DNA from: Octopus vulgaris
Taxonomy: Eukaryota
DNA: 64,000 nucleotides
Assembly (NCBI GenBank): GCA_951406725.2
Contig: OX597814.1
Location: 100,750,001-100,814,000, forward strand
Direction of reading: 5' to 3'
Under the pieces are notes generated by a model, which was given only the letters and a program-made list of their open reading frames with translations, ran no database searches and was not told the origin of the DNA. Positions 17,488 through 58,486 of this stretch are shown one piece after another. Within the stretch, counting starts at the first letter, position 1. Each line of letters begins with the position of its first letter. Both the position numbers and the translations under genes were made by a program.

Positions 17488-18029
17488 TTAGTTAGTTAGT
17501 TAGTTAGTTAATTTGGCTCAAAAGCAAATAGCAAGGCCATGTAGGGGGGCATGGAGTTAAGTACAGGGTGGTGTTCATGTAAAGAGTTCAGGCCACTTGA
17601 GGTCAAGGGAGGCTTTGAACAAAGCGGTCGTCGGCATCTTCACCATCTCGTCTGGCAGCTTGTTCCAGGGATCCGCAACCCGGACGGAGAAAGCTCCTCT
17701 CCTTCGATTGAGATGAAATCGTCGCAAGTAGAGCTTTTCGGAATGACACCGCAGCCGACGCTCTGGAGTAGGAGTGAAGAACAGCTCTTACGAGAGGTTA
17801 CACTTTCCGCTTATGATGTTGTGGGCGAGAATGAGATCACCACGGCGGCGGCGTTTTTCAAGAGAATAAAGGTCGAGCGTCCTCAGCCTTTCTTCATAGG
17901 ACAAATTTTTGAGACCATGAACCATGCGGGTAGCCAGCTTCTGGACTCTTTCGAGATGCTGTATGTCTTTGAGGAGATAAGGAGAAGAGGCTTGAATCCC
18001 GTACTCCAATATGGTCTCACCAGCGTGAC
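17488..18029 (-). mobile_element. 3' end of a CR1-group LINE (ORF2 C-terminus, 3' UTR, (TAAC)n tail)
   Basis: TLVRP/ILEYG...LERVQKLATRMVHGLKNLSYEERLRTLDLYSLEKRRRRGDLI...FSVRVADPWNKLP...FKASLD are typical CR1 C-terminal motifs; ends in a (TAAC)n tail. Confidence 0.9.
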
Positions 18030-40019: not shown

Positions 40020-40785
40020 AGTGCTGATAGCTTAAGACTTGGAATTTTCCAGCATTAAACTGCATATTATTCTTCTCAGCTTATCTGTAAATTGCATCCA
40101 ACTCCTGCTGTAGGCATGCAACATCGCTAGGGTTTTGTGTATTTTCGACGAGATTTTCGTTTCGTCTGTGTAGCTAGCAAGCGTGACTACCCGAGCAGCT
40201 GAGGGCATATCTGAGAGGGACACTATGAAAAGCAGTGGTCCCAAGACAGTGCCCTGTGGAACACCACTCACTATTTGAGGTGGCTTCATTGCCTGACTTA
40301 TATCTTTCAGAAAGTCATGTAACCACTCTCCAAGTTTTCCGCCTATGCCAAAATCACTATCTTTGTGGCATATCATATAATGATCAACTTTATCAAAATC
40401 TTTTGCAAAGTCAAGGTATATTACGTCCACATTTGAGTTGTCGAGTAACTACTTCAACACCCAGTCATAGTACTGTAGGGGCTGTGTCAGGCAAATCCTA
40501 CCTGCTCGAAAACCAAGCTGGATATCACTCAGCAAGTCATTTTTTTTTAATGAAAGCGATTAGTTTCCTTCTGACTAATCGTTCCATGACTTTGCTGATG
40601 TGTGAAGTCAGACAGATAGATTTATAACATTTGGCATCTGCTCTGTGTCCTCCTTTATGTATTGGACATATTGCCTTCTTTAGTATTCTTGGCAGCTTGC
40701 CATTTGCAAAAGAGCTCTGGAAGAGAATCTGTACTGGTTTTGCCAGGGCACGTTTGCAGGATTTGAGGAAGATTGCAGGGAAAGC
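40020..40785 (-). mobile_element. CR1-group LINE reverse transcriptase fragment
   Basis: PIHKGG...YKSICLTS..SKVMER; DVIYLDFAKDFDKVDH; SGVPQGTVLGPLLF; YTDETKI (decayed YADD). Confidence 0.9.
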
Positions 40786-47009: not shown

Positions 47010-47445
47010 AATTTTGGCACAAGGGTTAATTTCGGGTTAGAAATAAGTCGATTACATTGACATCAGTGCTCAAATGGTGTTTATTTGTCGACCCCGGAAG
47101 GATGAAAGGTAGGCTGACCTCTGCGGAATTTGAACTCAGAAAGTAAAAACCGGAAGAAATGGCTGCTAAGCATATTACACAGCATGCTAACAATTCTGCC
47201 AGCTCACCGCCTTAATAAATGTAATAATATTGGTAGCAAATTTTAGCACAAGGCCAGCAATTTCATGGGAGAGGCTAAGTCGATTACATCGATACTAGTG
47301 CTGAAGTGGTACTTATTTCATCTACCTCGAAAGGATAAAAGGGTAAAGTCGACTCCGGCGGAATTTGAACTCAGAAAGTAAGACGGGCGAAATGCTGCGA
47401 AGCATTTTGTCTGACGTGCTAACGATTCTGCCAGCTCGCCGCCTT
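47010..47445 (-). mobile_element. Two tandem SINE family B copies
   Basis: Both end on the plus strand in ttctgccagctc(a/g)ccgcctt. Confidence 0.85.
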
Positions 47446-47461
47446 ACAGAAAAAGTAATAA

Positions 47462-47834
47462 TAACGCCAGCACTGAGAGAGTGCAAACCTCCGCCAAGGC
47501 AACACCAACGTCCTCTCAACGATTAGCCGGATATGATTTTTAAAATGAGAATATCTGAAATAAACTTGACTGCTCCCACAAAACGAGAATACTAAAAATG
47601 AACCCGAGCACTCTCAAACATTAAGCAAAAAATAACTGGAAAAATAATCCAGAAACTTTGTCCGGTACCGGAGCGGTCAAAAAATCTAATCAGTTCGTGC
47701 CAGTCACGAGACCAAATGAAGCCCGAAAGTTTCATCCGAATCCATCCAGCGGTTCTTGAGATATCTTGTCCATGAACGAGCAAACAAACACGACTGAAAC
47801 AATAGCTCTGCCTTCGCTAAACCGGAGGAAATAA
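47462..47834. mobile_element. Helentron-associated (HINE/DINE-like) non-autonomous element
   Basis: Subterminal acctccgccaaggc, terminal stem-loop ctctgccttcgctaaaccggagg, internal gtttcatccgaatccatccagcggttcttgagatat motif. Confidence 0.6.
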
Positions 47835-52927: not shown

Positions 52928-54895
52928 CACATATATACACACATATATATATATACACATATATATATACATGCATCTCTATATATACATATATATACAC
53001 ACACATTATACACTCATACATACATACACACACACGCACACACACACACATACATTGTTTGATGTCAGCTAGCCGAACTAAGTAGACTGGTAATTTTTCT
53101 TTTTTAATAGTTTAGCTGATCTCAAATACAAAAAAAGTTCATATTTTTCATCCGATGAAATAGTGTACTCTTACGTTATCTTCTATGCCACGATCCATGC
53201 GCTGGGAAGCAGGGCTTTTCATTTCAATTTTCAATGGTGTTTTGTTTCTCTGCACAAGCAGTTATAAGTGTTCAAATATCCTTGACATGAAACAGTTTTG
53301 AATTCATAACAAAGCTGTTGACTGATTGTAATACTTCTGACGTTCAGAATCTTATACATTTTTAAGACTTGTATTTACTTAAACACTGTTTAAAATCTCC
53401 AAGTATGTTCAAACTTGCTGACAGATACATGTGTATAGTACTCAGAAATTAAATGTCGGATCGTGTCGTTAGTGTCGGTGAAATCTGTTTGACATGACTA
53501 GTATTACTTATTTTTGTGTAACACAGGCATAACTAGTATTACTCATTTTTTGTAGCTCAGATGCAGCACGAATTTTGTCAGTGAACCGGTTGCGGTCTGA
53601 AAGCGAGGGAAATATTTTGACAAATTAAATTTAAATGTTGAAGTGAATCTAATAGATTTTGTGTGTTTCTTAAATGACTTATGACCACCTTCCACGCTGC
53701 AGTTGTTTTCGTTCCAGCACGCAATCTCAGATCAGGTCACTTGCTATGCAAGTACATCTACAAGTTTATTTTAATGATTATTACAAATAATAATAAAATA
53801 TAAAATAAAATAGTAGCACCAGCATTATTCTCGATTTCAGGCTACATGCAACATGTCTAATTATATATTAATTGGATATCAAGAAGTTGTTCGTTTAATT
53901 CGGAATTAATTCGAAGGCAAAGTGAGGCGGATCTAGAGAGATGCAAAATATATAGATTTAGTTTACAAACACAAACACATACACACACACACACCCACAC
54001 ACACACACACCCATGTATGCGCTTGTGAGTCTGTGTGAGTCTGTGTGTTTACATGAGTGCGTAAGTGTATGTGTGTGTGTGTATGAGTGTGTACGTATGT
54101 ATTATACCATACTTTGAAACTGTGTGGACAGTGTTCTATAATGATAGACCGCTAGTGTATGCGTACTAAGAATTATAATTTAGTAAAAAAAATTAGATTA
54201 TATATCTTAGGTTAGTGAATATGGTATGTATACATACAAGCCCGTGATTCGTGTGTTTTATGAGTTGTATTTTAGACTGATACCAAATTCCGCGGTTGTT
54301 CTTTTTACGGATTCAAATTTTGGCTAAGATATTGCATATACAAGGGATTCTAGTTTAGGAAGCATAATTGCATGTTCAGTGTGTGTGAGTGTGTGTTTAT
54401 GTATATACATATGCGCGTTCATGTAACTTTGTGTGGACGCTTAAAACTATTACCATCCACATTCTTTTGATATGCGCAAGTAAAGTTTGAAACAACACGC
54501 TCTACCTTTAAACGAGAAGAGCAAGATTTTTCTTTTAATTTCAGATATCATTCTTCTAGTTCTAGGGATGACTGTACTATATATATATGACTGTAAATAT
54601 ATATATATATATATATAAATAATTAATTAATAAGGGTGAGAGAATTAGATACTAATTTAATAGTATATCTATTCAACACCAAGTGGCCTAGTGCTCCGAG
54701 AAACCTGGATTATTATAATATTTTATAACATATTATAATATTTTTACAAAATAAATATAAGAGAGTGGTCACTATGTGGCTCACTCCAGCACCAGTTAAT
54801 CCAAAAGGTTTCAACCACGAAAATACATGTTTCCCATGAAAGTCAGTACGATTGTTAGCTCACACGGACAGGGCAAATAAAAAATAACAAAAATA

Positions 54896-54992
54896 CAGAT
54901 TATTTTGGGACAATTGTTTCGCTATTAATGAATTAAATGTAATTTTACTTACAAAAAAAATCCATTTGTAGCTCGTCAGCCAGAACTATCTG
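54896..54992 (-). ncRNA. Type I hammerhead ribozyme (predicted)
   Basis: Reverse complement of 56227-56323. Confidence 0.85.
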
Positions 54993-55431
54993 GATGAAAT
55001 CCACTCAATCACACGCCAGATTTTACCATAACGATAAATACGCGTGTGGTTCAATTGATTACATCCGACGTTATAATTCAAATGCCCCAACTAACAGCGC
55101 GGCAAACTTTCACGGAAAACAAATACAGCATTTAGAAATAAATGCAGCATAATTATAATTAATTAATAAGGGTGAGAGAATTAGATACTAATTTAATAGT
55201 ATATCTATTCAACACCAAGTGGCCTAGTGCTCCGAGAAACCTGGATTATTATAATATTTTATAACATATTATAATATTTTTACAAAATAAATATAAGAGA
55301 GTGGTCACTATGTGGCTCACTCCAGCACCAGTTAATCCAAAAGGTTTCAACCACGAAAATACATGTTTCCCATGAAAGTCAGTACGATTGTTAGCTCACA
55401 CGGACAGGGCAAATAAAAAATAACAAAAATA

Positions 55432-55527
55432 CAGATTATTTTGGGACAATTGTTTCGCTATTAATGAATTAAATGTAATTTTACTTACAAAAAAATCCAT
55501 TTGTAGCTCGTCAGCCAGAACTATCTG
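55432..55527 (-). ncRNA. Type I hammerhead ribozyme (predicted)
   Basis: Reverse complement of 56227-56323, with one fewer U in loop II. Confidence 0.85.
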
Positions 55528-56226
55528 GATGAAATCCACTCAATCACACGCCAGATTTTACCATAACGATAAATACGCGTGTGGTTCAATTGATTACATC
55601 CGACGTTATAATTCAAATGCCCCAACTAACAGCGCGGCAAACTTTCACGGAAAACAAATACAGCATTTAGAAATAAATGCAGCATAATTATAATTAATTA
55701 ATAAGGGTGAGAGAATTAGATACTAATTTAATAGTATATCTATTCAACACCAAGTGGCCTAGTGCTCCGAGAAACCTGGATTATTATAATATTTTATAAC
55801 ATATTATAATATTTTTACAAAATAAATATAAGAGAGTGGTCACTATGTGGCTCACTCCAGCACCAGTTAATCCAAAAGGTTTCAACCACGAAAATACATG
55901 TTTCCCATGAGTGACCACTCTCTTATATTTATTTTGTAAAAATATTATAATATGTTATAAAATATTATAATAATCCAGGTTTCTCGGAGCACTAGGCCAC
56001 TTGGTGTTGAATAGATATACTATTAAATTAGTATCTAATTCTCTCACCCTTATTAATTAATTATAATTATGCTGCATTTATTTCTAAATGCTGTATTTGT
56101 TTTCCGTGAAAGTTTGCCGCGCTGTTAGTTGGGGCATTTGAATTATAACGTCGGATGTAATCAATTGAACCACACGCGTATTTATCGTTATGGTAAAATC
56201 TGGCGTGTGATTGAGTGGATTTCATC

Positions 56227-56323
56227 CAGATAGTTCTGGCTGACGAGCTACAAATGGATTTTTTTTGTAAGTAAAATTACATTTAATTCATTAATAGCGA
56301 AACAATTGTCCCAAAATAATCTG
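56227..56323 (+). ncRNA. Type I hammerhead ribozyme (predicted)
   Basis: CAGATAGTTCTGG-CTGACGA-GCTA-[AT-rich loop]-TAGC-GAA-ACAATTGT-C-CCAAAATAATCTG: canonical core, GUC site after 56310. Confidence 0.85.
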
Positions 56324-56762
56324 TATTTTTGTTATTTTTTATTTGCCCTGTCCGTGTGAGCTAACAATCGTACTGACTTTCATGGGAAACATGTATTTTC
56401 GTGGTTGAAACCTTTTGGATTAACTGGTGCTGGAGTGAGCCACATAGTGACCACTCTCTTATATTTATTTTGTAAAAATATTATAATATGTTATAAAATA
56501 TTATAATAATCCAGGTTTCTCGGAGCACTAGGCCACTTGGTGTTGAATAGATATACTATTAAATTAGTATCTAATTCTCTCACCCTTATTAATTAATTAT
56601 AATTATGCTGCATTTATTTCTAAATGCTGTATTTGTTTTCCGTGAAAGTTTGCCGCGCTGTTAGTTGGGGCATTTGAATTATAACGTCGGATGTAATCAA
56701 TTGAACCACACGCGTATTTATCGTTATGGTAAAATCTGGCGTGTGATTGAGTGGATTTCATC

Positions 56763-56859
56763 CAGATAGTTCTGGCTGACGAGCTACAAATGGATTTTTT
56801 TTGTAAGTAAAATTACATTTAATTCATTAATAGCGAAACAATTGTCCCAAAATAATCTG
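56763..56859 (+). ncRNA. Type I hammerhead ribozyme (predicted)
   Basis: Identical copy 536 bp downstream; GUC site after 56846. Confidence 0.85.
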
Positions 56860-56995
56860 TATTTTTGTTATTTTTTATTTGCCCTGTCCGTGTGAGCTAA
56901 CAATCGTACTGACTTTCATGGGAAACATGTATTTTCGTGGTTGAAACCTTTTGGATTAACTGGTGCTGGAGTGAGCCACATAGTGACCACTCTCT

Positions 56996-57064
<69 letters not shown>

Positions 57065-58256: not shown

Positions 58257-58486
58257 AAGCGGCGAGCTGGCAGAAACGTTAGCGCGCCGGGCGAAATGCT
58301 TAGCGGTATTTCATCTGTCGTTAGTTCTGAGTTCAAATTCCACCGGGATCAACTCTGCCTTTCATCCTTTCGTGGTCGATAAATAAAGTACCAGTTTCGC
58401 ACTGGGGTCGATGTAATCGACTTAATCCGTTTGTCTGTCCTTGTTTGTCCCCTCTGTGTTTAGCCCCTTGTGGGTAGTAAAGAAAT
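58257..58486 (+). mobile_element. SINE family B, full length
   Basis: gcggcgagctggcagaaacgttagc...gccccttgtgggtagtaaagaaat. Confidence 0.9.

Follow-up and report, generated by a model that had tools for sequence, protein, structure and literature searches.

Introduction

Animal retrozymes without long terminal repeats (non-LTR retrozymes) are built of non-coding units in tandem, every one of which carries a type I hammerhead ribozyme, have a GC content below 50% and occur as dispersed multimers with a predicted self-paired circle, in genomes that also hold Penelope-like elements (Cervera and de la Pena 2020, PMC7229834; Li et al. 2026, bioRxiv 10.64898/2026.07.22.740005). We analysed a 64,000-nucleotide (nt) stretch of the Octopus vulgaris genome (GCA_951406725.2, contig OX597814.1, positions 100,750,001–100,814,000, forward strand; hereafter the window), in which an array at window positions 54619–57000 shares these traits and is a member of this known class, with non-autonomous Penelope-like behaviour. 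The array is one insertion of a young, dispersed, non-coding 536-nt hammerhead repeat family. The single locus is a new member only, because the retrozyme class is already described; the main interest lies in a two-end rule that holds family-wide and in a haplotype common to both arms of an insertion, both invisible from a single locus. Inverted arms, fixed end sites and arm haplotypes are not described in the accessible parts of the two retrozyme sources. Li et al. 2026 tie retrozymes to pseudo-LTRs (pLTRs) by sequence, whereas here only the insertion layout is in common. Retrozyme units have been given as 150–450 bp (PMC7229834) and as 51–972 bp (Li et al. 2026), and the present unit, which an earlier reading of the locus from its letters alone (the sequence-only reading) had noted to be larger than the 170–400 nt given for animal retrozymes in 2020, is unexceptional because it falls inside the range of the 2026 preprint.

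The insertion layout has its closest described counterparts among Penelope-like elements. Canonical endonuclease-positive (EN+) elements of the Neptune/Nematis type (Craig et al. 2021, PMC8557442) likewise show an inverted 5′-truncated copy, a one-sided tail, (TA)n targeting and a hammerhead shortly upstream of the ends; they differ from the octopus array, which has no open reading frame (ORF), a 130-nt tail instead of one of 30–40 nt, and up to 12.7 repeats per arm where theirs are partial tandems. The accessible text of that paper leaves open how tandem or inverted Penelope-like insertions with a one-sided tail originate. In vitro, the green anole Poseidon protein cuts and extends both strands of AT-rich targets, and it initiates at a pair of internal positions in the RNA between which the tail lies (Frangieh et al. 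2024, PMC11167929); neither strand favoured a start site there, whereas in the octopus family one end of each kind is strictly paired, the two sites lie further apart and the arms run over several units. MRC1 and other non-autonomous Chlamys elements (PMC8557442) are also non-autonomous Penelope-like elements with multicopy head-to-tail insertions, but unlike the present array they resemble the 3′ end of their partner and are without canonical hammerheads. Hammerhead pairs on opposite strands are on record (PMC4209133), RNA circles have been proposed as templates for complementary DNA (cDNA) of more than unit length (PMC4209133, PMC7229834), and the sequence of a retrozyme is described as giving no clue to its mobilising enzyme (PMC7761336).

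Results

Two fixed end sites and their pairing

A search of the 2.8-Gb genome with the unit gave 1136 candidate regions, of which the best 39 were scored, and the 20-nt hammerhead core had 820 exact matches (control 0), establishing dispersed copies at other loci; a second 19-mer of the unit had 2175. We examined 79 loci, comprising the 39 best-scoring (including the window array, L069), 20 chromosome 1 clusters chosen by position, 11 loci picked for rare variants and nine further chromosome 1 clusters. Unit positions are numbered from the predicted ribozyme cut site, with window positions 56311–56846 as the reference unit.

The 3′ ends at the 79 loci lie at two sites, A at about 154–161 and B at 287–291, each running into (TA)n; in later alignments the AT-rich run-on blurs the position of site A to 171–179. 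The 5′ ends are evenly spread along the unit. Fifty-two of the 79 loci are two-armed, all back-to-back and none convergent, and 46 of these 52 combine one A end with one B end, while two alike ends were found in none. In the remaining six, one end lies elsewhere, in one case at an N gap and in the others at arms apparently rearranged or interrupted near the end. Among the 27 one-armed loci, ten end at A, 16 at B and one elsewhere. The chromosome 1 set picked by position kept the rule in 13/13 two-armed loci. The tail between the sites measures 130 nt, and both arms exceed one unit in 20 of the 46 loci. Back-to-back arms also arise in L1 twin priming, through priming at both DNA ends, but there each of the two cDNAs copies a separate part of a single linear RNA, whereas the two arms seen here span the same unit, often several times.

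The central junctions mostly show an overlap of 0–5 nt or a filler of at most 22 nt. Target duplications of about 13–16 nt, marked by non-TA bases, were seen at 4/39 loci and are masked by (TA)n elsewhere, L069 included; in non-LTR retrozymes such duplications, when present, are longer than 4 bp. At four loci with an end at site A (L041, L042, L048, L057) the last few template letters are reiterated before the TA run, as if priming had restarted or slipped, which recalls telomerase-like stuttering.

One template lineage per insertion

Substitutions per 100 nt amounted to 0.25 within an arm, 0.26 between the arms of a locus and 1.52 between loci (59 loci). At 46 lineage-level sites the two arms were identical in 38/40 loci, against 114/1546 cross-locus pairs (7%), and the 70 fully covered loci resolved into 40 haplotypes. 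The cut site was crossed cleanly 260 times out of 260, with no base added or lost, and 5′ ends near it numbered 2/104 (2.3 expected). Arm lengths are approximately exponential (p 0.16), with a mean of 1298 nt and a maximum of 6810 nt, and range from 0.1 to 12.7 units. Variants were confined to a single unit in 93 cases, fully spread in 14 and partly spread in eight. The template is therefore continuous through the cut site, and new changes repeatedly reach all units, so that a step from one unit to many is needed; a circle gives both the continuity and this step.

Two earlier indications fared less well. The use of “locus-private” variants as proof of a single template molecule was weakened, since 85G and 54G mark subfamilies, and L169, at first an apparent template switch at the cut site, was rejected as a local patch.

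Anatomy of the window array

The features of the array other than its ribozymes are as follows (window positions).

54599–54618: (TA)n target, left side
54619–55910, minus strand: left arm, 1292 nt, 2.41 units; 5′-truncated at unit position 70 and ending at 290 (site B, with the tail)
54909–55444, minus strand: second complete monomer, 100% identical to 56311–56846
55910: head-to-head junction of the two truncated 5′ ends, with a 1-nt overlap (locus L069 of the family set)
55910–57000, plus strand: right arm, 1091 nt, 2.04 units; 5′-truncated at unit position 136 and ending at about 154 (site A, without the tail)
56311–56846, plus strand: 536-nt monomer, cut site to cut site
56359–56666, plus strand: long predicted stem, in which unit positions 49–81 pair with 324–356 and which includes many of the array-wide A>G sites
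56472–56601, plus strand: internal copy of the 130-nt tail (unit positions 162–291), spanning the interval between both fixed end sites
57001–57058: (TA)n target, right side

The locus thus obeys the family rule, with its left arm ending at B and its right arm at A. The sequence-only reading had described two divergent blocks of a near-identical 536-bp unit, flanked on both sides by (TA)n and free of any ORF of at least 60 amino acids (aa). The block sizes and coordinates proved exact, and the sole difference between unit copies is one T lost from a poly-T run in one left-arm unit. Both TA runs are present. The longest ORF with an ATG start, in the array and round the circle, has 52 aa, while stretches from stop to stop reach at most 87 aa. 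The unit has a GC content of 0.33. No LTR layout was seen in the array anatomy of the examined loci.

An 18–20-nt direct duplication lies immediately left of the insertion (54568–54608) and may predate it or stem from repair. Elsewhere in the window, a 232-nt unit in 1.8 tandem copies (47044–47463) resembles interspersed repeat pieces near 58400 and is probably similar to short interspersed elements.

Hammerhead motif, fold and covariation

A motif scan of both strands of the whole window found one type I hammerhead four times, in agreement with the count in the sequence-only reading.

54896–54992, minus strand: type I hammerhead, core at 54979, predicted cut after 54909
55432–55527, minus strand: type I hammerhead, one T shorter, core at 55514, predicted cut after 55445
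56227–56323, plus strand: type I hammerhead, core at 56240, predicted cut after 56310
56763–56859, plus strand: type I hammerhead, core at 56776, predicted cut after 56846

A single further weak match, at 17886 on the minus strand, was rejected as its helix I has only 2 bp. The earlier description of these ribozymes as canonical is loose: helix II is a 52-nt extended stem-loop upon its 4-bp base, and helix III has 2 bp closed by a palindromic AAUU loop. A helix III with a palindromic loop is of the kind able to work as a dimer (PMC4209133). Rfam gave no hammerhead match to the array at the gathering score or at E ≤ 10, and covariation supports the fold instead; the Rfam hairpin matches in the array are explained by the inversion and the TA run.

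An older related family keeps the hammerhead core with helix I pairs swapped. In the comparison with this family (25 distinct sequences), 92.1% of cells were paired, against 32–46% in slid controls, and both-sided changes between the young and older families affect 5/7 pairs of helix I. The helix II base includes a pair that is G-C in the young family and U·U in the older one. The covariation score was matched by 0/500 shuffles, and two weaker measures by 30/500 and 325/500, so that two of five measures showed no clear win. The ribozyme fold is likely under selection, as judged from the sequences, because helix I pairing is kept through compensatory changes between branches that are about 60–65% identical. 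The circle of the 536-nt monomer is predicted to fold at −148.3 kcal/mol (z −6.6 against 60 dinucleotide shuffles), with both end sites on the 3′ side of small AU-rich hairpins.

The older branch (L062:7640-8135; L200–L229) comprises 3725 candidate regions, of which the best 40 were scored, and is about 60–65% identical to the 536-nt unit. Its copies are 83–95% identical to the L062 copy, which itself ends at site A. In the flanks of 30 older relatives, weak matches to Penelope-like proteins were found at three loci (28–33% identity). Further hammerhead repeat families occur in the flanks of the examined loci (L078:1-570, L043:2446-3074, L108:2843-3820, L031:6577-6669, L053:3004, L112:1999). 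Among them, the arms of L078 stand back to back, one of their ends passing into (TA)n and the other extending further, and L043 repeats with a period of 282 nt and includes an inverted copy; from these two cases, the back-to-back layout probably extends to more hammerhead families.

An excess of A>G changes

Changes were placed on a tree comprising 55 loci, the other 24 of the 79 having too little repeat cover; the rows dropped were a 70-nt stray arm at L039, the terminal 8–12 nt of arms, the poly-T columns 484–495 and one piece of L169. A>G made up 25/85 array-wide changes, against 7/112 single-unit changes (p 2e-5). Among array-wide changes the ratio of A>G to T>C was 25:12 (p 0.002), or 24:13 under another root (p 0.006). 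A79G arose four times. In the predicted fold, A57 and A62 sit in internal loops opposite C, and an A opposite C is a preferred editing context.

Contigs of four presumed-RNA runs cover the whole unit and the unit-to-unit joint, a joint that a tandem template gives as well; these runs are seen as contigs only, in which ends, strand and circles cannot be read. In three of the four, A>G differences occur among unit positions 54, 57, 62, 66 and 85, some of which are also array-wide A>G sites, and in the fourth at none. 54G accounts for 17–48% of contig depth, against 13/2175 genomic copies, and 85G for 14–76%, against 17 genomic copies. We take the A>G in these contigs as a weak hint of editing. 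RNA editing written back to DNA is marginally favoured as the source of the excess.

Candidate Penelope-like enzymes

A search for GIY-YIG endonucleases gave 6136 candidates, of which the best 150 were scored. Two young families encode a reverse transcriptase (RT) with a C-terminal GIY-YIG domain and a CX4CxxC linker, a mark of Neptune/Nematis (PMC8557442). By this mark, which the Neptune and Nematis clades share, both would be Neptune-type. In the family with a 775-aa protein, 76/76 scored copies are identical over 573 aa, and because of this identity the family is probably active; the family with a 781-aa protein has dozens of intact copies. The named eukaryotic relatives of the candidate enzyme are mostly from bivalve molluscs.

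Both enzyme families are inserted in (TA)n, the microsatellite target they have in common with the retrozyme, and both show back-to-back arms with two fixed ends. Two-armed copies with both ends visible have one of each end in 5/5 cases in the 775-aa family and 3/3 in the 781-aa family, and their tails measure about 35–45 nt. At L044, a retrozyme array lies in the TA tract directly after the 3′ end of a 775-aa element.

The unit of the 775-aa family (L141:1275-5544), which is very young, has 4270 bp and carries a second ORF of 223 codons after that of the 775-aa protein; its hammerhead core reads CCGAAGA in place of CUGANGA. In the second young family (L111:1481-6172) a 479-codon ORF lies upstream of the 781-aa RT-endonuclease ORF, and related copies have a hammerhead-like motif with the core TTGATAA.

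Within the window, an RT fragment was detected at 40035–40448 on the minus strand (PF00078, E 4e-11), without a match to the 781-aa protein. The other 24 of 25 window ORFs scanned against Pfam had no match, and no match to the Penelope-like protein was found within the window.

Discussion

The arms of this family end at two fixed sites, as they do in intact Penelope-like elements, and were therefore likely copied by the enzyme of such elements from both ends of a DNA break. Mobilisation by a Penelope-like enzyme with priming from both ends is very likely. The sequence-only reading had proposed a non-autonomous retrozyme probably moved by a Penelope-like RT, and its proposal agrees with the dispersed copies, the lack of an ORF, the self-paired fold, the inverted arms with a tail and the intact elements of the same layout. 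A circular template is probable, at an appreciably lower level of confidence. The explanation that we favour, and consider probable as a whole, is retrozyme insertion into (TA)n by a Neptune-type Penelope-like RT-endonuclease, with both cut DNA ends primed, probably on one RNA circle.

Under this explanation, the array would be transcribed and its hammerheads would cut out the monomer, which a host ligase would close into a circle. The borrowed enzyme would nick both strands within (TA)n, and reverse transcription would start at about unit position 291 on one DNA end and 161 on the other, helped by AT pairing over a few nt. Each cDNA would travel round the circle over a random distance, giving arms of 0.1–12.7 units, and the two free ends would be joined centrally with a 0–5-nt overlap or a short filler. 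Some circles would probably have undergone A-to-I editing beforehand, and a circle edited before copying would therefore place G in every unit. A fuller version, in which two enzymes prime both break ends at the two fixed sites on one ribozyme-made circle, copying proceeds by rolling, and A-to-I edits are copied into every unit, making RNA editing a driver of how the family evolves in the germline, is tentative and on balance doubtful.

Several observations weigh against the favoured explanation. The minimum-energy fold is predicted to mispair the hammerhead core, the active fold costing 5.6 kcal/mol more; 8/9 retrozyme dimers were without cleavage in Li et al. 2026 (bioRxiv 10.64898/2026.07.22.740005); and the anole protein worked in vitro mainly on RNA that was still uncleaved and did not require the hammerhead (PMC11167929). 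The 130-nt tail contrasts with about 35–45 nt in the two enzyme families and 30–40 nt in print. The unit had no BLAST match to the Penelope-like loci L070–L139, and its local alignment with the end regions of the two young families was no better than shuffles (23/200, 45/200). The idea that copies might be linked by sequence to Penelope-like RT/GIY-YIG ORFs thus found no similarity in either place, and the partner enzyme is therefore inferred from layout. With the best 150 of 6136 candidates scored, the absent link weakens derivation from a pLTR and not movement by a Penelope-like enzyme.

Further points concern the template and the A>G signal. The long arrays L050, L163, L174 and L180 are mosaic, some of their units carrying variants that the others lack, and therefore need several templates or later DNA turnover, which argues against a model of single circles only. 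In L174 (2419-9015), a 12.3-unit arm, rare variants recur with a four-unit period over two cycles, reflecting either a tetramer template or later duplication. L045 (4492-5897) has one unit of a foreign haplotype in an otherwise uniform array, and both switches fall within 79 nt spanning the cut site. Several variants that had at first seemed private turned out to define small subfamilies (85G in eight loci, 54G in four), so that a haplotype common to both arms may descend from a parent array, or come from one dominant source locus in germ cells. The A>G excess could be favoured for keeping pairing (A-U to G-U, A·C to G-C), and a bias in enzyme errors may be another source of it.

The rival that survives best keeps the same two-end Penelope-like priming and takes as template an uncleaved linear multimer from a parent array, the hammerhead being a passenger and the arrays being homogenised or lengthened later by unequal crossing-over or gene conversion. 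The substrate preference of the anole protein (PMC11167929), the mosaic and periodic arrays and the subfamily variants common to several loci speak for it, and a multimer would account just as well for the clean passage across the cut site. Yet 5′ truncation only shortens, whereas 40 haplotypes each have their own arrays of up to 12.7 units, and the step from one unit to many must therefore recur. Partly spread variants are rare (eight, against 93 single-unit and 14 fully spread), unlike the outcome of slow DNA homogenisation, and the compensatory changes in helix I suggest that the fold is selected. We regard this rival as unlikely, though it carries more weight than the others.

The template could otherwise consist of cut linear monomers, with an RT that, on reaching the 5′ end of one monomer, transfers exactly onto the 3′ end of that monomer or of a different one. 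Such jumps would yield mosaic arrays, and the foreign unit of L045, switched on both sides near the cut site, is what they would leave; the second apparent case, L169, is a local patch. The 260/260 clean junctions, the lack of a pile-up of 5′ ends at the cut site (2/104) and the single haplotype kept in most arrays make this improbable. Still less credible is a DNA satellite that moves as extrachromosomal DNA circles and reinserts by a rolling-circle mechanism, without reverse transcription: it would give uniform, dispersed tandem arrays of random phase, but the fixed 3′ and random 5′ ends, one of each per insertion, the (TA)n targets, the layout matching that of RT-encoding elements and the strand-biased A>G at the array level speak against it. 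An assembly artefact of the array or inversion, a risk named in the sequence-only reading and suggested by the essentially 100% identical arms at the locus and the N gap adjoining the related locus L032, can be set aside because 52 loci, distributed over many chromosomes, have the same layout and yet differ in their junctions and haplotypes, with target duplications visible at 4/39.

For Penelope-like elements or retrozymes, earlier publications already describe inverted copies, tails on one side only, a pair of internal start sites and the idea of a circle. What sets the present family apart, and suits it as a test system, is its long tail, its strict pairing of ends, its arms of several units from one template lineage and its A>G bias. 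In the literature searched, which left subscription papers mostly outside, we found no publication that describes this family, that reports strict one-of-each ends or arms with a common haplotype for a retrozyme, or that deals with retrozyme RNA editing copied into the genome; the family may be catalogued in Repbase or Dfam, which lay beyond the search.

Insertion by a Penelope-like enzyme at both break ends, as favoured here, leaves a footprint of two start sites, strict pairing and one lineage, which together with two intact candidate enzymes bears on the mobiliser of retrozymes and on the insertion layout of Penelope-like elements. A compact in vitro system could be assembled from the 536-nt RNA, a (TA)n target and the 775-aa protein. 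Should the template indeed be circular, the family would represent a natural route for writing tandem DNA from circular RNA, and if the editing signal is true, it would be a clear case of RNA edits turned into heritable DNA changes.

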